Virus record (IMG/VR): IMGVR_UViG_3300029258_002096
Span: 1 to 52,541 of that record
Length of the DNA stretch: 52,541 bases
Reading direction: 5' to 3' (one strand)
From: a virus
Part shown: piece after piece, positions 1,976 to 52,541 of the stretch
How positions within the stretch are numbered: the first letter of the stretch is position 1
Layout of the letters: each line of letters begins with the position of its first letter
The notes under the pieces: generated by a model
Database searches by the model: none
Seen by the model: the letters and a program-made list of their open reading frames with translations, nothing else
Told to the model about the DNA's origin: nothing
Position numbers and translations under genes: made by a program

Positions 1976-2062
1976 GCCGTCCGCCCTAAATTTAGCATAA
2001 GCCGCGCGAAGGCATAGAAACAAATGCAAATATTTGTTATGTGCCGAAACGAAAGGGGTTTT

Positions 2063-2335
2063 ATGAAATTGAGAGAATACACAGATGAACAGATAGATAA
2101 ATATGGGAATGATTTTAACATAGATGTAATAAGAGAGGCTAATATAGATTTTAAAGAATGGTATGATCATAAAAAGTATCTTTGGAAAAAACCAACTAAA
2201 GATTTACCATGCCAAATATGTTATGAATGGCGGAGATTTCCAAAAGGACAAAGACATTTTGGGTATGCTTGGTGGAGAATTTGTAGTAAGGAATGTACGT
2301 GCTCCCACCATAAAGAAGAAGTGTGGATGGCATAG
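2063..2335 (+). CDS. cassette-encoded hypothetical protein
   Basis: ATG 2063 after AAAGGGG RBS, inside cassette 2036-2344; stop just before the inverse core site. Confidence 0.65.
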   Translation: MKLREYTDEQIDKYGNDFNIDVIREANIDFKEWYDHKKYLWKKPTKDLPCQICYEWRRFPKGQRHFGYAWWRICSKECTCSHHKEEVWMA

Positions 2336-2337
2336 GC

Positions 2338-2444
2338 ACATAACGTCTGTCATAATGTGCCGGTGGAGTTGTGAGGCTGAACCCGATTTCGGCGGATCTC
2401 TTCCTCGGTACAGGGCGGGGGTCACATTCATGACATTGTTATGC
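2338..2444 (+). other. attC-like site (107 bp)
   Basis: ACATAAC...TGTCATAATGTGCC pairs with GG[T]CACATT[C]ATGACA...GTTATGC; two unpaired bases 6 nt apart. Confidence 0.85.
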
Positions 2445-2478
2445 GGCGAAACGAAATTATAAAAAGGAGAAAATTGCA

Positions 2479-2736
2479 ATGTATGACTACAATGTTGAGA
2501 AAAAAAAGATATTTACGGATGAGGGACAACGTGAGTTTTTGAAAGTTAGAGATAAGGCAAGACAGCTTCTGGATGAGGGTGGGGCATTCATGATGTTTTC
2601 TGCGCTTACGGATATTTCCGGTGACACATCATGGACAATGATGGCTTATGTTGACAGGCTTGTTGAGCTTGGTGAAATACGTGAAATTACAAAACCTGGG
2701 GTTGCGGGGCAAGACCGAGTTTTTGTAGCCGCATAA
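2479..2736 (+). CDS. cassette-encoded hypothetical protein
   Basis: AAAGGAG RBS; stop TAA lies within the inverse core GCATAAC. Confidence 0.75.
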   Translation: MYDYNVEKKKIFTDEGQREFLKVRDKARQLLDEGGAFMMFSALTDISGDTSWTMMAYVDRLVELGEIREITKPGVAGQDRVFVAA

Positions 2737-2948
2737 CGTCAATGCTCTGCGGTGAAACGGCGGGGTAAGAGAAAGGATAAAAAAATGGAATTTCCAGAAA
2801 TTGATAGAAAATCATGGTTTTATCAGAATTGCAAGCGTAATCGCAGGGTTGGTGCAAAGTGCTGTGATGTATGCCCTTTTAAGGAGGGTATTGAAGATCA
2901 GGAAAGCGGTGTTGGGCGGGTTTCATCCGTAGCAGCAACGGGTTATGC
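2731..2948 (+). other. expanded attC-like site with 161-bp loop containing a gene start
   Basis: Left arm TGCTCTGCGGTGAAAC 2743-2758 pairs with GTTTCA[T]CCGTAG[C]AGCA 2920-2937; GCATAAC/GTTATGC ends. Confidence 0.75.
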
Positions 2949-3147
2949 CGGGCCGGGCAGTGAGGAAGGGACGGGCTGGCGGCTTACTGACGAAGAAAAG
3001 CCGATGGAAGAAGGATACAAAATGTGTTCAAACGGAAAAGGATTGTTACCATTTTTCGCTATGTACAGGGACGGTAATTTTTATCTTGACATGGAATTTA
3101 CTATACCGAAATACTGGCAAGAATTACCTAAGCCGCCAGAGGCATAA
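2785..3147 (+). CDS. fusion protein: Cys-rich N-terminus plus DUF551-like C-terminal domain
   Basis: WRLTDEEKP...YWQELPKPP is a DUF551-type W..P/W..LP.PP pattern; frame runs through the attC right arm; ATG 2785 follows AAAGGA. Confidence 0.65.
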   Translation: MEFPEIDRKSWFYQNCKRNRRVGAKCCDVCPFKEGIEDQESGVGRVSSVAATGYAGPGSEEGTGWRLTDEEKPMEEGYKMCSNGKGLLPFFAMYRDGNFYLDMEFTIPKYWQELPKPPEA

Positions 3148-3343
3148 CGCTAATTATAACCGGCTTGAGGCCGGGAGGTAAAAATGGATTGGGAACAGAT
3201 AGTTCAAGAAATGCTTAGTTGTTATTCAAATAAAAAATATTGGTATAAACATTTAGTTGGAAGAAAATGGGATATTGTAAAAGTTGCAGAGCATTTGCAA
3301 AAAAAGTTTGGTGGGGCAAGTCCGGTTCATAATCAAGTTATGC
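3142..3343 (+). other. expanded attC-like site with 149-bp loop containing a gene start
   Basis: ATTATAACCGGCTTG 3153-3167 pairs 15/15 with CAAG[T]CCGGTT[C]ATAAT 3317-3333; GCATAAC/GTTATGC ends. Confidence 0.8.
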
Positions 3344-3519
3344 CTGGCCGGGAAGATGCGGAGCGGAAGGGCAATCAGGGCGATATAATTGTCGGCAAGT
3401 ACAAACTTTGCGCTCATAATGCCGAAAACGGGCAAGTATGGCTTAAAGTGTGTAAGACTGGCGAAGGCGTTTTGCTCGGAGAGAAAGAAATTGAAGAATT
3501 ATATTTAAAACATTTTTAG
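3184..3519 (+). CDS. hypothetical fusion protein spanning an attC right arm
   Basis: GGAGG RBS; ASPVHNQVMP segment is encoded by the attC arm. Confidence 0.65.
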   Translation: MDWEQIVQEMLSCYSNKKYWYKHLVGRKWDIVKVAEHLQKKFGGASPVHNQVMPGREDAERKGNQGDIIVGKYKLCAHNAENGQVWLKVCKTGEGVLLGEKEIEELYLKHF

Positions 3520-3530
3520 CCCTGATTGGG

Positions 3531-3607
3531 GCATAACGGCTTGCGTTTAACCGGCAGAGGCAAGGACGTGGGCAGGGTGGCTGTCCGTGTTCTAACGCTG
3601 GTTATAC
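3531..3607 (+). other. attC-like site (77 bp)
   Basis: GCATAAC; GCGTTTAACCGGCAG vs CTG[T]CCGTGTT[C]TAACGC; GTTATAC. Confidence 0.8.
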
Positions 3608-3646
3608 GGGTTTGCCCTTTACCCTAAAAATATAAAGGAATGAATT

Positions 3647-3958
3647 ATGTGTAAACATAAAAGACTTGAATTGCGGGGGCATATCAGACCCGAAAATTTA
3701 TCAAAAAATGATATGTGGATTTCGGATTTATCTTTGGTTTGCATGGATTGTGGAGCACATTTATTGTATACCCCTAACAACCTTAAAAATATTATTAATA
3801 TTCCACATCCAGATAAATCTAATTGCAAACACCCATCAAATGTATTATCCTATGATTTGTGTGGTTTCGGAAGATGGACGTGTCTACAATGTGGGGAAAG
3901 AGGTATTTCATCTCCAGCATCTAAATTGGAGATAAGAACCTCTTGCAAACACGTATAA
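3647..3958 (+). CDS. cassette-encoded Cys/His-rich hypothetical protein
   Basis: AAAGGA RBS; CKH, CMDC and CLQC motifs; stop within inverse core GTATAAC. Confidence 0.7.
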   Translation: MCKHKRLELRGHIRPENLSKNDMWISDLSLVCMDCGAHLLYTPNNLKNIINIPHPDKSNCKHPSNVLSYDLCGFGRWTCLQCGERGISSPASKLEIRTSCKHV

Positions 3959-4021
3959 CGGACTGGTAATAACCTGAAAAACCGCTACACTGAATTTTAG
4001 GTTATTATACAGACGTTTAAT
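3953..4021 (+). other. degenerate attC-like site
   Basis: GTATAAC; GTAATAACCTGAAAA vs TTTTAGGTTATTATAC; right core degenerate (GTTTAAT). Confidence 0.5.
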
Positions 4022-6884: not shown

Positions 6885-6954
6885 CGCCGCCAATAACCAG
6901 GCGGCTGAGGAGCGGAGCGACGAAGACGATCCGCGTTAATTAGCCTTGTTATGT
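6879..6954 (+). other. attC-like site (76 bp)
   Basis: GGCTAAC...AATAACCAGGCG...GGAGCGGAGCGACG...TCCGCGTTAATTAG...GTTATGT; classic attC layout with GCGGAGCG centre. Confidence 0.8.
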
Positions 6955-7290
6955 TTTTACTTTGGAGATAACGATGATTAGCAAAAAATTTGGGGAAGAT
7001 TTTAACAGCACCCGTGGCGCACTTACCTTGGATGTTTCAGAAGTAACGGACTCCGATGCTACGGGTGGAGTCCATACGAAAACACACGCAGACGGATGGA
7101 CAATTACAGGTGAAGTACACGAGGACTATTACACATGGGTTAATTCATTTAGTGCCACACACCCTGAATACGGAACGGTGGCTGGTGACTTTGAAGATGA
7201 AGTAACGGCAACCTCTGAGGAAGGGTTTAAGCACTTCTGGCAGCACCATCGGCCTACTGAGTGGGACTATAGTAATATTTAAAACATAAC
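6948..7290 (+). mobile_element. integron-like gene cassette between terL and portal
   Basis: GTTATGTTTT 6948-6957 is the exact reverse complement of AAAACATAAC 7281-7290. Confidence 0.8.
6974..7282 (+). CDS. cassette-encoded acidic hypothetical protein
   Basis: GGAG RBS at 6964, ATG 6974; fills the cassette. Confidence 0.75.
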   Translation: MISKKFGEDFNSTRGALTLDVSEVTDSDATGGVHTKTHADGWTITGEVHEDYYTWVNSFSATHPEYGTVAGDFEDEVTATSEEGFKHFWQHHRPTEWDYSNI

Positions 7291-36342: not shown

Positions 36343-36519
36343 GTTTTGGGGGAATAATGAAATTTTCCCACTATATTTTTTGCCTGACTCTGGGCCTACC
36401 CGTGACATTACTTGTTTTATGGCTTGGTTTCTTTTTTTATCTCTGGCTTATCTGGCCTCCGTGGAGACGGGTAGAGAAAGCAACGTGGAGGGATTACTGG
36501 CCTTTAGAGGGGGAGTAAC

Positions 36520-37056
36520 GTGAACAAGTCGAGTAAATTGTTAGCCTGCCCCGATGATTTGGTGAATGAACATTGGGATTATATAGAGAAAGTATTAGAG
36601 AATTATGCAGGCAAACCAATGTATTTACACATGATTGAATTTCATTATAAAACCGCCTTTAAACATGGTTGGAAACATGCCATACAAGAAAAGGCAGGCT
36701 TACGTGCCACAAGAGAGGAAGGTGACGTGACAGTAGACGAATTAACGGATTATGCATATAAAGATTTAGACGAGTATGAAAAAATTGTCGGATTTGAAAC
36801 AAATGAATCTTTCAGAATTGGTTGGACGATGGCACGGATAACAAATAAACAATTGAAGATACCAACGGACACAGAAAGGCTCGACTGGCTGGAAGAACAG
36901 TATGGGCTTCACAGGGAAGTCGAAATTACCTATGTAGTCGATGGGTACGAGATTGAATTCACCCATGACGGTAACCCGACGGACGGTAAGCGATACCACG
37001 GGAGGACGCTTCACGAGGCGATAGACGCGGCGAAAAGGGGGCAGCTGGATAAATGA
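36520..37056 (+). CDS. mosaic hypothetical protein containing a cassette-derived first module
   Basis: GTTAGCCTGCC 36540-36550 vs GGCAGGCTTAC 36693-36703 (10/11); C-terminal TDTERLDWLE module. Confidence 0.65.
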   Translation: MNKSSKLLACPDDLVNEHWDYIEKVLENYAGKPMYLHMIEFHYKTAFKHGWKHAIQEKAGLRATREEGDVTVDELTDYAYKDLDEYEKIVGFETNESFRIGWTMARITNKQLKIPTDTERLDWLEEQYGLHREVEITYVVDGYEIEFTHDGNPTDGKRYHGRTLHEAIDAAKRGQLDK

Positions 37057-37229
37057 AATTATATAAAGTACCCAATCACAGGGCGAGTAAGATTCAGGTG
37101 GTGGAATCATCGTCGCCCCCATCCGTTTGTTCTGTGTGCTGTGGTACGCCCGTCGTGGTGCGAGGACACACGACACATTGGTATGAGTGCCAGAAGTGCG
37201 GTAAGGCATGTGACACACAGAACGGTTAA
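37053..37229 (+). CDS. zinc-ribbon protein fused across an attC right arm (58 aa, not in ORF track)
   Basis: Manual translation MKLYKVPNHRASKIQVVESSSPPSVCSVCCG...CQKCGKACDTQNG; ATGA overlap. Confidence 0.6.
   Translation: MKLYKVPNHRASKIQVVESSSPPSVCSVCCGTPVVVRGHTTHWYECQKCGKACDTQNG
37129..37223 (+). mobile_element. 95-bp mini-cassette
   Basis: GTTCTGTGTG 37129-37138 is the exact reverse complement of CACACAGAAC 37214-37223; upstream GCCCCCATCCGTTT resembles the arm at 49871-49885. Confidence 0.65.
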
Positions 37230-40149: not shown

Positions 40150-40536
40150 ATGGAAACCGTGACAAGTAACGACCCAAATGTCAGACTCACGATTAAAACG
40201 AACATCCAATTTAAAACCCTCGACGAAACCAAGCTCGACACAATCAAGCCTGTTGAACTGGCAAATGCTTTCCGGGCACTTGCCAATGGTATTATCGGTA
40301 GTTCTATGTATCTTTCGTCTGTCGGCGGCAAACCATGTGGCGTACCGACTCAGACACCGACTACATTGGCCTCCGCAAATATTGGCGACGGTCTGGTTGG
40401 CATCACACGGTTGGAACCCGGCCAATACCAGCTTACCATCAAGCGCGTCGTGGAGGCAGAATGTTACCATAATGGCAGTATCTCGCGCAGCCACAAGGCC
40501 GTCCACACGGATGACGGATGGCAGAAAGTGGGGTGA
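40150..40536 (+). CDS. hypothetical protein
   Basis: GGAGG RBS; ATG 40150. Confidence 0.6.
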   Translation: METVTSNDPNVRLTIKTNIQFKTLDETKLDTIKPVELANAFRALANGIIGSSMYLSSVGGKPCGVPTQTPTTLASANIGDGLVGITRLEPGQYQLTIKRVVEAECYHNGSISRSHKAVHTDDGWQKVG

Positions 40537-40628
40537 ACTATACAAGAGGGTTCTGGAGGAAATCAAAACTTGGCCTCCAGAGAGATTCACTCCCGAAGGT
40601 TGGCAGTATCACGACTGGAGAAAATGAC

Positions 40629-41030
40629 ATGCGACTCTGGCACGAAGATATAATCGATAAGCTACCAGACCGTAAAACGTCTGGCGATCCCAAGAAAAGC
40701 CAGTTGAATGGCCTGCATCGAGAATGCTGTGGAATGCGTGGAAAGGGCTGGGGCAAGAAAGGCGGAGTCGTCGGGTATGTCTGGAAATATCCCTACGCAT
40801 ATCTTTATTTGTATCATAAAAAAGTTATGCATGAATTGTTATGTCGGGGTTATAATATAGATAGACGTTGGCTTGATTCCTTTTATCGAGGGAAAAAACT
40901 GGGTTATGATTATTCACTCGAAATATCTGGACACTTAAAGTTTGACAGAACGCCTATTTTCCCAGAACACGACGAAGCCTATTTGCAAGAATGTATAGAC
41001 AACCTTAGAAAGAAAGGAGTAGAATTATGA
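40629..41030 (+). CDS. TIGR02328-like protein (pyrimidine-dimer glycosylase/DenV-related superfamily)
   Basis: MRLWH...[15 protein letters not shown]...YH..VM.E...RGY...W....YRGK...PEHD..YL.EC..NL..KG. Confidence 0.85.
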
Positions 41031-41623
41031 AAAAGCAGATTGAACTAAGGAATCGCTTTACTAACGAAATTATAGTAGCTGGTAAATATGCGGATATCAG
41101 GTGGGCTGTTGAGGAAAACAGGGCTGATCTCATGGGAGCCAACCTCCGGGGAGCCAACCTCCAGGAAGCCAACCTCCGGGGAGCCAACCTCCAGGGAGCC
41201 AACCTCCAGGGAGCCAACCTCCAGGGAGCCGACCTCCGGGGAGCCAACCTCCAGGGAGCCGACCTCCGGGGAGCCAACCTCCAGGGAGCCAACCTCTGGG
41301 GAGCCGACCTCCGGGGAGCCAACCTCTGGGGAGCCAACCTCCGGGGAGCCAACCTCCAGGGAGCCAACCTCCGGGAAGCCGACCTCCAGGGAGCCGACCT
41401 CCGGGGAGCCGATCTTGATTTTTCTTGCTGGCCCCTATGGTGTGGGTCGTTCGGTGTTATTGTTGACATAGACAAAATTTATCAACTTGCCTTACATATA
41501 TGCAAGTGTAGGGTTGAGGGAAGTAAAGAAGATAAAGAGGAGTTTGCCAAGATCAAAGATTTCCTCCGCCCTTATGCGAACAAGTTTCATCGAATTGGAC
41601 AAGATGTTAAAGGTGTAGAATGA
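41027..41623 (+). CDS. pentapeptide repeat protein
   Basis: about 20 A[N/D]L[R/Q/W][G/E] repeats followed by [10 protein letters not shown]. Confidence 0.95.
41136..41415 (+). repeat. 15-bp tandem repeat (GGAGCC[A/G]ACCTC[C/T][A/G]G)
   Basis: DNA-level repeat underlying the pentapeptides. Confidence 0.9.
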
Positions 41624-43926: not shown

Positions 43927-44082
43927 ATGACAAACCCATCCTTAGCTGCTTACCGCCGTAGGCGGTTGCAGGATAGGAGGAGTGACAAAGGGATGTCAAA
44001 CCCGAATAGGCATTCGTACAAATCACTCGCCGGACGGGCCGGAAACCGGAATCGAGGTACTTCGGGTGGATGGGTTTGTCAT
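43927..44082 (+). ncRNA. candidate structured ncRNA or miniature element closed by a perfect 15-bp stem
   Basis: ATGACAAACCCATCC 43927-43941/GGATGGGTTTGTCAT 44068-44082 with several internal hairpins. Confidence 0.55.
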
Positions 44083-49415: not shown

Positions 49416-49530
49416 TATCTCTTATTATATATTTTAAATTATTGTAGATATTAGATGAGCTAAAGCTCAGGAGAAAAATAATGGATAAAAAAGATGGTTG
49501 GTTGATAACCATTAAAACAACTGCGAATAA

Positions 49531-49600
49531 ATATAACGCCGGGATCACCGGCAGGAAGGAGCGGAGCGCATGACTGTCCGTGTGAATCCCGATGTTATAT
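49531..49600 (+). other. attC-like site (70 bp)
   Basis: ATATAAC; GGGATCACCGGCAG vs CTG[T]CCGTGTG[A]ATCCC; GCGGAGCGC centre; GTTATAT. Confidence 0.8.
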
Positions 49601-49992
49601 GTCCCGCGTGCGGTTGGCATGGTCCGCTGACACAAACCGACAATGGGGTCTGTCCACGGTGTGAATATGAGGTAAACGGCGGCGAGCCCTACAGGCTGAT
49701 GACGCTAGCCGAACTTCGCGAGTCAGAACATGGGGCCACATGGTGTGATGTAGACATGCGCGAGTTTCTGCGCGCGGTGGCTGAGGTAGAAGCAGATAAC
49801 GTCAAGCGTCAGGTAGCCGTCTCGCGTCGGCAGACCAACAGCGCTCGTGAACGCGGCCCTTCATGTTGTAGCCCTCCATCCGCTTGTTCGGCATGCCCTA
49901 CGTGTGGCCGCAGCAAGCCGGATTGGGCGGAGTATTGCTCTGAGGAATGTCGCTATGAGGACGAAACGGGGCATCCTGGTTGTGAATACTGA
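49570..49992 (+). CDS. Cys-rich ORF reading through two attC-like sites
   Basis: ATG inside attC 49531-49600; CPACG, CPRC and CPTCG modules. Confidence 0.55.
   Translation: MTVRVNPDVICPACGWHGPLTQTDNGVCPRCEYEVNGGEPYRLMTLAELRESEHGATWCDVDMREFLRAVAEVEADNVKRQVAVSRRQTNSARERGPSCCSPPSACSACPTCGRSKPDWAEYCSEECRYEDETGHPGCEY
49794..49892 (+). other. degenerate attC-like site
   Basis: AGATAACGTCAAGCGTCAGG...GCCCTCCATCCGCTTGTTCGGC; left part parallels 50384-50402. Confidence 0.55.
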
Positions 49993-50022: not shown

Positions 50023-50080
50023 GCCGAACGGTTAGTTTCAGCGGTGCGCTTTTTGCATCCGCTGCAAACTTTTGTTATAC
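50023..50080 (+). other. attC-like site (58 bp)
   Basis: AGTTTCAGCGGTGC 50034-50047 pairs 14/14 with GCA[T]CCGCTG[C]AAACT 50055-50070; GCCGAAC/GTTATAC ends. Confidence 0.9.
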
Positions 50081-50107
50081 GGCGAACTTAACTAACAGGA
50101 GAAAACA

Positions 50108-50389
50108 ATGGAAAACAATAATCACTTAACACTTAAATGGGGCACACTGAAATCATGGAACTTTAAAGGCAATGAAGAAGCGTGCAAATTATTAAAACGT
50201 TACGGGGAAATCGGTTCATCATTCTCAGCGATGGCGCAAAATGATACGCCAGAACAAAAGGAAATAATTTGCAAGTTAATAGATTTGACACCAGGAGAAA
50301 TATATCTTGATTGGGACGGTGAATACGTTTCAAAAGAAAAAGCAAAAGAATATGTAATGAATTACGGCAAAGAAAAACAAGCCGTATAA
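50108..50389 (+). CDS. cassette-encoded hypothetical protein
   Basis: AGGAG RBS; stop inside GTATAAC. Confidence 0.8.
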   Translation: MENNNHLTLKWGTLKSWNFKGNEEACKLLKRYGEIGSSFSAMAQNDTPEQKEIICKLIDLTPGEIYLDWDGEYVSKEKAKEYVMNYGKEKQAV

Positions 50390-50440
50390 CGTCAAGGGTC
50401 AGGCGCGGCTTTAGCCGTCGCCTGAATCCGCTGGTTCGGC
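50384..50440 (+). other. attC-like site (57 bp)
   Basis: GGGTCAGGCGCGGCT vs AGCCG[T]CGCCTG[A]ATCC; GTATAAC/GTTCGGC ends. Confidence 0.85.
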
Positions 50441-50469
50441 TCCGGTTGGACTGGTGGAGGAGAGGACCA

Positions 50470-50976
50470 ATGAATCCAAAAGAAACACAACGCCGAGAAG
50501 AGATTGGTAAGATCGTTGCCAGCCTTGAACGGTTTGGGAAAATAGGCTGGTGGCAATTTGCGGCCTATCAACAGAAGAAATGGAGATTTGAACTTATATT
50601 ATATGTTATTGATATACTTTACGAAACAGAAAACTTAAGGAGGCGTATCCAGCATTTAGTTGAACAAAAAGAAATGGGCCAACTATACGGGGCGCTGACT
50701 TATTTTATTGATAAATATGCCGGAGAATATTCGGAGACACAGGGTCAAGAACAAAAGCAAGCCGCAAAGGAATGGGCCGACAAAATAGATATACCCATCG
50801 GCCAAAATCTTAAGTCAGACGATCAAATCCGGCTTGAAGGAGAACTTAAAAAACGCCAGCAGAGAGCGGATCAATATTTGCAGGACGGGGACATACATGG
50901 ATACAAAGACCTAAAGCGACAAATAAATAAAATAGAAATCCAGTTGAAGCGAATGGAAAAGCTTCAAAAATTTTAA
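50470..50976 (+). CDS. helical hypothetical protein
   Basis: GAGG RBS; ATG 50470. Confidence 0.6.
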   Translation: MNPKETQRREEIGKIVASLERFGKIGWWQFAAYQQKKWRFELILYVIDILYETENLRRRIQHLVEQKEMGQLYGALTYFIDKYAGEYSETQGQEQKQAAKEWADKIDIPIGQNLKSDDQIRLEGELKKRQQRADQYLQDGDIHGYKDLKRQINKIEIQLKRMEKLQKF

Positions 50977-51011
50977 GGAGGTACTGTTATACGTTTTCTT
51001 AGGAGGACTGA

Positions 51012-51425
51012 ATGGAAAATATACCTGAAAAAATATATTTACAAGTTGACCCTGAAAATGAACAACCAGAAAGTTTTGATGATTTGGCGGAAATAACATG
51101 GTGCAGAGATAAAATTAATGATAACGATATTGAATATGAATTAAGCGGGGTGGAATCGGGTCAGCTTGATATATTGTTAGCTGCCCGTTGTGCCACTTGT
51201 AAGCATTGGGGAGGGGATAAAAAACAATTAATGAAAGTACTTAATGAATATGATATTGAAACTATAAAAAAATATTTAGATGTTAAAGAAGGATGGGCAA
51301 TAGATGGAAAATGTAAAGAATTAATATGTGAATTAATATTTTATGCCTATGGGGCAGGGGTTGATGAAGTAGAGACACCTGCTGGTTTTAGCTGTAATCT
51401 TTATGAATCAGATAAGGGCAGCTAA
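51012..51425 (+). CDS. fusion protein spanning an attC right arm
   Basis: N-terminal IPEKIYLQ...TWC...DIEY module plus cassette module CATCKHW...; stop in AGCTAAC. Confidence 0.7.
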   Translation: MENIPEKIYLQVDPENEQPESFDDLAEITWCRDKINDNDIEYELSGVESGQLDILLAARCATCKHWGGDKKQLMKVLNEYDIETIKKYLDVKEGWAIDGKCKELICELIFYAYGAGVDEVETPAGFSCNLYESDKGS

Positions 51426-51616
51426 CGTCCAGTAATAACCGGCTGAAAGGACTAAGTGATGGATAGAAATCAAGTTATTGAAATTTTGGCAGAATTGCGA
51501 GAAACGGCAGATTACTTACCTACTGACCAAAAATATTTGGATGCTCTTGAACACGCACAGAACTTATTAGAAGAGGGCGGTGCGGAGCAAGGTCCGCGTT
51601 CTGCCGATGGTTCACC
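51420..51616 (+). other. expanded or hybrid attC-like site containing a gene start
   Basis: left arm GTAATAACCGG, right arm GG[T]CCGCGTT[C]TGCCGATG then GTTCACC; arms pair only partly. Confidence 0.5.
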
Positions 51617-51812
51617 AGTGGATGTGCCTGGGGAAAGTGCGGGACTTCAAGACGGGGTGGTGGCTATTGAAAAGAAATTACTTGATACAATTTACGCACA
51701 GATAAAAGGTGTTATTGATAATATGGAACTGCATCCAAAACAGTGTGGATATAAGTGCGCCCTATATGATACTTTTGAAAAATTGAAATTAATTTATGGG
51801 GTGGAGTCTTGA
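51456..51812 (+). CDS. fusion protein spanning an attC right arm
   Basis: GPRSADGSP segment encoded by the arm. Confidence 0.6.
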   Translation: MMDRNQVIEILAELRETADYLPTDQKYLDALEHAQNLLEEGGAEQGPRSADGSPVDVPGESAGLQDGVVAIEKKLLDTIYAQIKGVIDNMELHPKQCGYKCALYDTFEKLKLIYGVES

Positions 51813-51816
51813 AGTT

Positions 51817-52046
51817 GGTGAACGTTTAGGTTCATGTGCCAAATGGAGGACAAAATGAAGAAAAGGAAAATTTGGAATCGTTGTATTTATTGCGGCAGGT
51901 TTATTGGATTGGGTGAGTTTATGAGGGGTGAGGTAGAAACTGATTTTACACCAGACACTCACTTTACATACGAAAAAATTGAACATTATCACAAAAAATG
52001 TAAAGAAGAATGTGGGGATTTGGTCACGTGCTAACTTTGGTTATGC
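51817..52046 (+). other. expanded attC-like site enclosing a whole ORF
   Basis: GGTGAAC; GGTTCATGTGCC vs GG[T]CACGTG[C]TAAC; GTTATGC 52040-52046. Confidence 0.6.
51855..52034 (+). CDS. small Cys/His protein inside an attC loop
   Basis: GGAGG RBS; RCIYCGRFI...HKKC. Confidence 0.65.
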   Translation: MKKRKIWNRCIYCGRFIGLGEFMRGEVETDFTPDTHFTYEKIEHYHKKCKEECGDLVTC

Positions 52047-52049
52047 TTA

Positions 52050-52382
52050 GTGAATACCGGCCACAAGCCGGTGCTTATGAATGGCCAAAGGGCCAGAGGA
52101 GCGAAGATGAACGATAGATTAGACTGGCAACACAAGGGTGGGGTGCTTGACATACCAGATAGACATTTTGTCTATAATGTAAACTTTGATGCTGATGAAC
52201 CTTACATAACAATTGTTGATGCAGAAGATCCTCACACTGAAGAAAAAAAGATGTTAGTACCGAAGTCACTCGCATACTATTTAAGCACGCATGCTTGTGG
52301 ATCACGGAAAATGATGGAGAATTTTATAGAGCAAGGACGGCATGAGGTGCGGGTGGGGTTTCAAAGGCTATTGGGATTATAG
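52050..52382 (+). CDS. hypothetical protein (probable cassette gene)
   Basis: follows GTTATGC core; followed by truncated attC-like CACTAAC...ATAACCGGCAAAAAC...GTTTTTG[T]CC 52395-52437. Confidence 0.6.
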   Translation: MNTGHKPVLMNGQRARGAKMNDRLDWQHKGGVLDIPDRHFVYNVNFDADEPYITIVDAEDPHTEEKKMLVPKSLAYYLSTHACGSRKMMENFIEQGRHEVRVGFQRLLGL

Positions 52383-52457
52383 GCCCTTTGGCAACACTAA
52401 CATGAATAATAACCGGCAAAAACAAGCGTTTTTGTCCAAACATAAAGGAGATGAGCA

Positions 52458-52541
52458 ATGAAAAGTAAGGCCGCAAAGTTAGCGTTTTTGTCCGTGTTCG
52501 TTATTGGGTTATTCGGCATTACGGGGTGTGGCGAAAAGAAC
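52458..52541 (+). CDS. lipoprotein, truncated by window end
   Basis: MKSKAAKLAFLSVFVIGLFGITGC lipobox. Confidence 0.6.
   Translation, partial: MKSKAAKLAFLSVFVIGLFGITGCGEKN

Follow-up and report, generated by a model that had tools for sequence, protein, structure and literature searches.

A three-module phage gene with a stop codon probably lost at an integron-like boundary repeat

The locus

The window, that is, the whole stretch of 52,541 nucleotides analysed here, is a tailed-phage genome with genes for the large terminase, portal, major head protein, tape-measure protein and tail fibre. Contig C10 of a 2.4-Mb metagenome-assembled genome carries the same phage, as does a 52,536-nt contig in ENA. 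C10 lacks the final 89 bases of the window (52453-52541); the phage element may be circularly permuted, or its assembly may differ between the data sets.

The ORF considered here encodes 178 amino acids and lies within a run of small genes, with the tail-fibre region on one side and nucleotide-metabolism genes on the other (Table 1). Elsewhere in the window, the gene of a pyrimidine-dimer DNA glycosylase (40518-41030; Pyr_excise, E=1.9e-13) adjoins that of a pentapeptide-repeat protein of 198 aa (41027-41623; E=1.4e-47). The GTG start codon of the 178-aa ORF, at 36520, is preceded by GAGGGGGAG and stands one base past the stop of a gene for a 53-aa membrane protein, the end of which doubles as the Shine-Dalgarno sequence of the ORF (duplex energy -11.1 kcal/mol). 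Here, as is usual in the window phage, the unit ends in TAAC and is followed by G, and TAACG is the commonest stop context in the window.

Near the beginning of the ORF and about a third of the way into it lie two arms, GTTAGCCTGCC (36540-36550) and GGCAGGCTTAC (36693-36703), which are complementary at ten of 11 positions and spaced by 142 nt. The mismatch is at 36701: with A instead of T in this position, the 11-nt repeat would be perfect and the triplet would be TAA, while in the actual sequence it is TTA, the in-frame codon 61, directly after ...QEKAG. An earlier note on this DNA had described an inverted repeat with a sole mismatch turning TAA into TTA, and this holds; the 55 codons it gave for the enclosed module are about right, the length being 164 nt.

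Table 1. Features of the 178-aa ORF and of the repeat family (window coordinates)
Feature	Coordinates	Strand	Remarks
Upstream 53-aa membrane-protein gene, 3' end (GGGGGAGTAAC)	36509..36519	+	TAA stop at 36516-36518, then C, G
178-aa ORF, modules A-B-C	36520..37056	+	GTG start; same protein on 6 assembled contigs
Module A	36538..36700	+	163-bp block, 89.6% identical to L001:493-655, flanks unrelated; predicted two-helix hairpin domain
Left arm, GTTAGCCTGCC	36540..36550	+	within the ORF; encodes (L)LAC(P); homology with L001 DNA starts 2 nt 5'
Right arm, GGCAGGCTTAC	36693..36703	+	pairs with the left arm except at 36701
TTA (Leu61)	36700..36702	+	TAA stop here in the closest homologue; the invariant family core AAC is TAC
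Linker, 8 codons (RATREEGD, codons 62-69)	36703..36726	+	reads as a putative former intergenic leader; model pLDDT 56
Shine-Dalgarno-like GAGGAAGGTGA	36715..36725	+	GTG follows
GTG (Val70)	36727..36729	+	free-standing B homologues start at projected residues 70-76
Module B	36727..36861	+	DYAYK...GW.MAR.TNKQL.I; small, two helices (predicted); elsewhere a 57-90-aa protein
ATA (Ile114)	36859..36861	+	aligned with the ATG start of free-standing C genes; leader remnant absent
Module C	36862..37053	+	TD.ERLDWLE...YVVDGYE...HG.TL; predicted alpha-beta-beta-beta-alpha fold; elsewhere a 62-82-aa phage protein
Regions of the repeat family	2036-3959, 6948-7290, 37129-37223, 50074-52392		
Example arm pairs	2036/2335, 2438/2728, 3601/3950, 6948/7281, 50074/50381, 51176/51416		
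Imperfect attC-like hairpin	2335-2447		113 nt, -17.5 kcal/mol as DNA; outer stem ...ATAAC/GTTAT...
Imperfect attC-like hairpin	49528-49603		76 nt, -16.2 kcal/mol as DNA; outer stem ...ATAAC/GTTAT...

The three modules

A scan against 1.84 billion representative proteins yielded 601 hits, which split the ORF into module A (residues ~4-60), module B (~72-114) and module C (~113-173). Among the best 150 of the 601 hits, C alone is seen in 98, A alone in 25 and B alone in 22; an apparent A+B hit (P0104) and several apparent B+C hits (P0045, P0098 and others) turned out not to be genuine combinations, and neither fusion is represented. Each module is common as a phage protein of 55-90 aa. The MAFFT alignments A7 and A8 misplace the A and B modules and were excluded. 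IMG/VR has 78 loci with A, B or C in this analysis, and at none of them does a different module lie within 2.5 kb. Since the modules are free-standing elsewhere, with no genuine fusions and no paired loci, the A-B-C combination appears to be peculiar to the window phage.

Two giant proteins of the representative library, P0016 (3,516 aa) and P0018 (5,048 aa), also match the 178-aa ORF, the former in 18 separate stretches, the best of them over residues 88-159. The small modules may thus also occur as tandem repeats in very large proteins.

Module A has the motif HW.Y...FHY.TAF.HGWKH and is modelled as a His/Trp-rich helical hairpin, confidently so for residues 11-60 (pLDDT about 90), while the linker that follows is modelled weakly (pLDDT 56). 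It is the sole or the C-terminal domain in most relatives, and of 28 proteins about 20 have it ending 0-9 residues from the C-terminus. The division into three modules is borne out by the structure models. Pfam, PHROG and PDB sequence families contain no match to A, B or C. A Foldseek search of the PDB with B+C gave nothing at E<=0.001, with weak resemblance to the dsRBD, HicB and YfiA folds, and in the viral library the sole matches are uncharacterised phage proteins. The predicted fold of C weakly resembles the double-stranded-RNA-binding domain.

The two junctions are of different kinds. At the B-C junction, the homology to free-standing C genes (L084, L086) begins two codons after codon 114. 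Since no leader remnant is seen there and ATA is aligned with the ATG of the C genes, it was a deletion or a recombination event that joined B and C, and not read-through.

At the A-B junction, on the other hand, the linker retains a ribosome-binding site and a start codon at the position where B homologues begin. The duplex of GAGGAAGGTGA with the anti-Shine-Dalgarno sequence, upstream of the GTG at 36727, has an energy of -9.1 kcal/mol, which is sixth among 513 internal in-frame start codons (top 1.2%) and stronger than at 68% of the gene starts of the window. Module B probably once started at this GTG, and initiation here may persist, giving a separate B-C product.

The closest homologue of module A

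The nearest homologue in a search of 5.8 billion proteins is P0004, a protein of 82 aa that is 95% identical to the ORF product over residues 6-60 and has the C-terminus ...QEKAG. Its gene lies inside a 1.2-kb contig, L001, and has GGC TAA where the window has GGC TTA. The DNA homology between the window and L001 is confined to one block of 163 nt (36538-36700 and L001:493-655, 89.6%) extending from two bases 5' of the left arm to the stop codon. The rest of L001 is unrelated to the window; downstream of the A-gene stop there is an unrelated gene and no B-like sequence. The left arm in L001 is the same as in the window, the right arm is GGCGGGCTAAT, and a hairpin of 10 bp lies 3' of the stop. 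The ATG of the A gene is 86 nt upstream of the left arm. The earlier note had pointed to a homologue of this kind, ending in ...QEKAG at a TAA, as the one to look for, and had set against it the case of all homologues being full-length with leucine at this position. P0004, with the same left arm and a hairpin after the gene, stops at the aligned codon, so that the former expectation is borne out and the latter case does not apply.

Each complete gene on L001 has a flanking repeat of the form GTTA...TAAC, 9-14 nt long (167-180/364-377, 695-703/911-919, 1001-1009/1178-1186). An extra copy of the A right arm (GGCAGGATAAC, L001:378-388) is found immediately 5' of the A gene's Shine-Dalgarno sequence and ATG; together with the left arm it gives a hairpin with a 106-nt loop that contains the start codon and 28 codons.

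The repeat family

Taken alone, the A pair does not stand out. Among the 30 inverted repeats in 1.5 kb it comes 17th, about 130-146 pairs of 11 nt with one mismatch are expected in the window, and GTTAGCC occurs at the chance rate only. Our first reading was a chance match, and this was dropped after a repeat census of the whole window.

The census yielded about twice the expected number of long-range repeats. Four of the 31 perfect repeats of at least 10 nt start with GTTA and end with TAAC, and there are six perfect pairs of the form GTTAnnnnnn...nnnnnnTAAC with 0.1 expected (40 simulations, at most one pair in any). Flanking repeats of at least 12 nt accompany ten of 93 genes, compared to 1.8% of controls. 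Members of the family are situated at 2.0-4.0 kb, 6.9 kb, 36.5-37.2 kb and 50-52.4 kb, around small genes or C-terminal parts of genes.

The arms have a common core, whereas the outer bases differ between units and match within a unit. In eight cognate arm pairs, 54 of 64 outer positions match, while 14,833 non-cognate pairings give 24.4±3.6 matches, at most 40. The A pair as a member of this family is far beyond chance. Its mismatch falls in the GTT/AAC triplet, which is intact in the other seven units. In the units read, the TAA of the right arm is the in-frame stop of the ORFs 2479..2736, 2752..3147, 3647..3958, 50108..50389 and 51012..51425, and the spacers between units have the common motifs TAACGTC and TAATAACCGGC. 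The family of core and inverse-core sites, of which the author of the earlier note had already noticed members elsewhere in the window, is real in the window phage and its relatives. The terminal repeat is absent from 37 other A-family loci. Since the repeat habit is missing in most members of the A, B and C families, it is a property of a phage lineage rather than of the genes.

Two ORFs of the family, 2752..3147 and 3184..3519, have an internal and split left arm (2942-2986/3129-3148 and 3337-3381/3519-3537, respectively). It consists of GTTATGCC, a translated insert of about 25 nt with GGAAGG, and a perfect arm of 10-11 nt; the right arm has no such interruption. The inserts are similar to the linker between A and B with its Shine-Dalgarno sequence. 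The longest long-range repeat in the window, at 43927-44082, is a perfect 15-bp inverted repeat (ATGACAAACCCATCC / GGATGGGTTTGTCAT) that encloses 126 nt and fills an intergenic gap.

Related loci

The C genes of relatives are bounded by arms GTTAGGCGC/GCGCCTAAC in L086, GTTGGGCGCA/TGCGCCCAAC in L084 and GTTGGGT/ACCCAAC in L233, with compensating changes that keep the pairing. The cores are canonical, GTTAGGC/GCCTAAC, GTTGGGC/GCCCAAC or GTTGGGT/ACCCAAC, and fit GTTRRRY/RYYYAAC. The block common to L231 and L232 extends from just after one AAC core to the next.

A comparison of the homologous C genes L084:1501-1728 and L086:709-900 shows that the right arm of the latter, GCGCCTAAC, provides the TAA stop. 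In L084, the right arm is GCGCCCAAC, the left arm is compensated (GTTAGGC to GTTGGGC), and the ORF is 14 codons longer. By this alignment, the L084 C gene appears to be a second case of read-through at a unit end.

Relation to integron cassettes

An integrase that could serve these sites was not found. The best match to the integron integrase model TIGR02249 scores 86.8 bits, with the cut-off being 265, and integron-free control genomes score the same. PF00589 matches are confined to contigs C1, C3 and C4 of the metagenome-assembled genome, with none on the phage contig C10, where recombinases of the tyrosine and serine types and Y1 transposases are lacking as well. Nor did 20 accessory ORFs yield a recombinase when scanned with Pfam, and Rfam has no match in the window.

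A strict scan for RYYYAAC/GTTRRRY yields two pairs in the window, with about ten expected, and none near 36-37.5 kb; GTTAGCC is one position off the core consensus, and GGCTTAC has TAC for AAC. On the other hand, the other seven units keep GTT/AAC intact, and the C-gene units of relatives have canonical cores. No attC-like hairpin is seen at the A-B junction, as the region 36690-36810 folds like shuffled sequence (z -0.73 and +0.40 on the two strands), and the next start codon stands at a distance of only 24 nt from the right arm. The ORF start is not downstream of the core, since the GTG at 36520 lies 20 nt 5' of the left arm, and the left arm encodes LLACP, part of the conserved domain. At two other junctions, imperfect attC-like hairpins are formed (Table 1). 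The loop of the one at 49528-49603 contains the Shine-Dalgarno sequence and the ATG (49570) of the ORF 49570..49992.

The behaviour of the units is nevertheless reminiscent of cassettes. Each unit begins with a sequence that pairs with the inverse core at its own end but not with that of the neighbour, by the above count of cognate and non-cognate arm matches, and units move as blocks that end at arms or cores, as in the window and L001 (36538-36700) or, from core to core, in L231 and L232. We infer that the arms may act as recombination sites. It is plausible that the unit works like an integron cassette; that it is one is unproven. The attC cassette of the earlier note is best taken as an analogy, the integrase and the hairpin at this junction being missing and the start codon being upstream of the core.

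History of the fusion

There is good support for a fusion through stop-codon loss, which we consider probable. The evidence in hand is the repeat family, the stop of the homologue at codon 61, the Shine-Dalgarno sequence and GTG that remain in the linker, and the occurrence of A, B and C as separate proteins.

The following course of events is proposed. Many small accessory genes or gene parts of the phage lie between a left arm starting with GTT and a right arm ending with AAC, with a complementarity specific for each unit, and the right arm often contains the TAA stop of the gene. The ancestor would have had an A unit ending ...QEKAG-TAA-C (...GGCTAAC), a 24-nt leader with a ribosome-binding site, and the GTG of B. 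A single A-to-T change at 36701 would have turned TAA into TTA, and, the leader being in frame and stop-free, translation would have continued through the linker LRATREEGD into B. Module C directly follows B within this ORF, irrespective of the order in which the two junctions arose, and the product is the A-B-C protein of 178 aa. The same base change would have damaged the AAC/GTT core, and if this triplet is the recombination point, as in attC, A would be locked to its neighbour.

The direction of the change and its completion in one step are the most economical reading and rest on parsimony, since neither an unfused ancestor nor a TAA variant was found. The index of 5.8 billion proteins contains no 60-aa A protein and no 110-aa B-C protein from the window phage. 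The unfused form with the same neighbours is absent from the protein indexes, IMG/VR and 72 genomes of the same family. No relatives of the window phage were retrieved by an INPHARED nucleotide search, by flanking genes in IMG/VR or among the 72 same-family genomes, and the indexed protein search gave no close free-standing B proteins. A search of IMG/VR and a metagenome collection with an 18-nt junction pattern was discarded, the pattern being too short: all 135 matches listed were due to chance (upstream identity at most 38%). The Shine-Dalgarno sequence, which is still strong, and the uncompensated arm mismatch suggest that the fusion is recent. In the "gene birth by cassette fusion" of the earlier note, fusion by stop loss is supported by the stop in L001 and the leader remnant, whereas a single change is unproven and the B-C junction is of another kind.

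An alternative is that the fusion was made by the recombination that placed A beside B, with the joint in or near the stop codon, so that TTA had never been TAA in this lineage. The homology between A and L001 breaks at the stop codon itself, hence a mosaic joint lies at this very spot and the event could itself have made the TTA. Unit boundaries in relatives are at the AAC core, and a weakly shared CTTACGT, 8 nt further in L001, would permit a route by an 8-nt deletion. However, the junction, bar one base, reads as a normal unit end, xxxTAAC followed by GT..., and the right arm is otherwise perfectly complementary, so that a single later change fits better than an imprecise joint. We regard this origin as unlikely.

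It is also improbable, in our estimate, that the arms are RNA-level or regulatory elements, such as cistron-end stems or repeats of promoters and terminators, with A, an ordinary protein domain, exchanged by general recombination and the stop loss real; "cassette" and "inverse core" would then be the wrong names. The phage contig has no recombinase; left arms resemble extended -10 promoters (TGTTATAC or TGTTATGC) located 25-46 nt before start codons; both right-arm changes in L001 would keep G-U pairing; and the flanking repeats 51643/51806 and 52084/52382 have no GTT/AAC core. But the blocks common to unrelated contexts start and end at arms or cores, the cores in relatives match the integron consensus GTTRRRY/RYYYAAC, the junctions at 2335-2447 and 49528-49603 fold as attC-like hairpins, if imperfectly, and in the minimum-energy RNA fold of the module the arms of the A unit do not pair with each other.

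Only one close A homologue is known, and the A-B-C gene could be the older form, the free-standing A gene of L001 resulting from truncation or fission. This is very improbable: hundreds of relatives have A, B or C overwhelmingly as a separate protein or at the C-terminus, nothing B-like is present 3' of the L001 stop, and a leftover Shine-Dalgarno sequence with GTG is unexpected inside an old domain linker. Finally, a sequencing or assembly error at 36701, with TAA as the true reading, is hardly credible even though the interpretation hangs on a single base, as the 178-aa sequence is identical on six contigs from different assemblies and pipelines (ENA, Logan, MAG), in samples that may not be independent, and L002 coincides with the window at all 6,537 bases.

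With stop-codon loss as the preferred history of the A-B junction, a broader scheme can be offered tentatively; we think it possible, if doubtful. The phage lineage would build accessory proteins from integron-like inverted-repeat units, often lacking a start of their own and used in an exon-like manner. The TAA would serve both as a stop and as part of the core, and a one-base change would remove the stop and immobilise the boundary, welding two units together. If true, new genes would arise repeatedly by a route written into the sequence, in a phage that has no integrase. As a rule, a gene fusion is recognised only when it is already old. Here the ancestral base can be read off the partner arm, which is intact, codon 61 is a stop in a free-standing copy with 95% identity, and the gene that was swallowed can still be recognised by its ribosome-binding site and start codon. 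This makes the locus a clean, testable example of three orphan phage mini-proteins becoming one multi-domain protein.

Comparison with known systems

Loss of a stop codon with read-through of the spacer is a general route to multi-domain proteins in bacteria. The A-B junction would conform to it, in that A has lost its stop, the spacer, being in frame, serves as a linker, and B keeps its ribosome-binding site and start codon inside the new ORF. Unlike general cases, the event here fell on a unit-boundary repeat, whose intact arm indicates the ancestral base, and a free-standing copy with 95% identity is available for comparison.

Tailed phages are mosaics of modules, including morons, as described by Hendrix-type mosaicism. 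The block of 163 bp with 90% identity in otherwise unrelated contexts, ending at domain or gene ends, is of this sort. In contrast to ordinary mosaic modules, its boundaries coincide with a unit-specific inverted repeat of a family that has statistical support, a coincidence not expected from random illegitimate recombination.

Both integrase-less attC clusters in phages (PMC9892861) and fused cassettes in integrons (PMC4670013) are already known. The former, CALINs, occur in phages of both the virulent and the temperate kind, where IntegronFinder/HattCI identified the sites and recombination with IntI1 was demonstrated (Qi et al. 2023, PMC9892861). The window phage shares with them attC-like sites with GTT/AAC cores, small genes of unknown function and no integrase nearby. 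Unlike in phage CALINs, its sites are described here from sequence and folding, most spacers between units are too short (0-60 nt) or hold the start of the next gene, and the block common to L231 and L232 has the spacer in front of the gene, not behind it.

In fused integron cassettes, loss of the attC of the first cassette leads to fusion with the next ORF (PMC4670013). The differences from that system are that the boundary is damaged here by one base and not deleted, that the phage has no integrase and the A-B junction no R''-L''-L'-R' hairpin, and that the start codon is 5' of the "core" in the setting of a phage genome. The likeness is in the outcome and in the architecture: adjacent mobile modules become one ORF when the stop-bearing element at their boundary is disabled, the stop lies inside the "inverse core", and the start of a unit is complementary to its own end. 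The fusion adds one concrete case to a wider picture: the window phage and its relatives have integron-like units with unit-specific end repeats and GTT/AAC cores, operating with no integrase of their own, and such units can apparently fuse.
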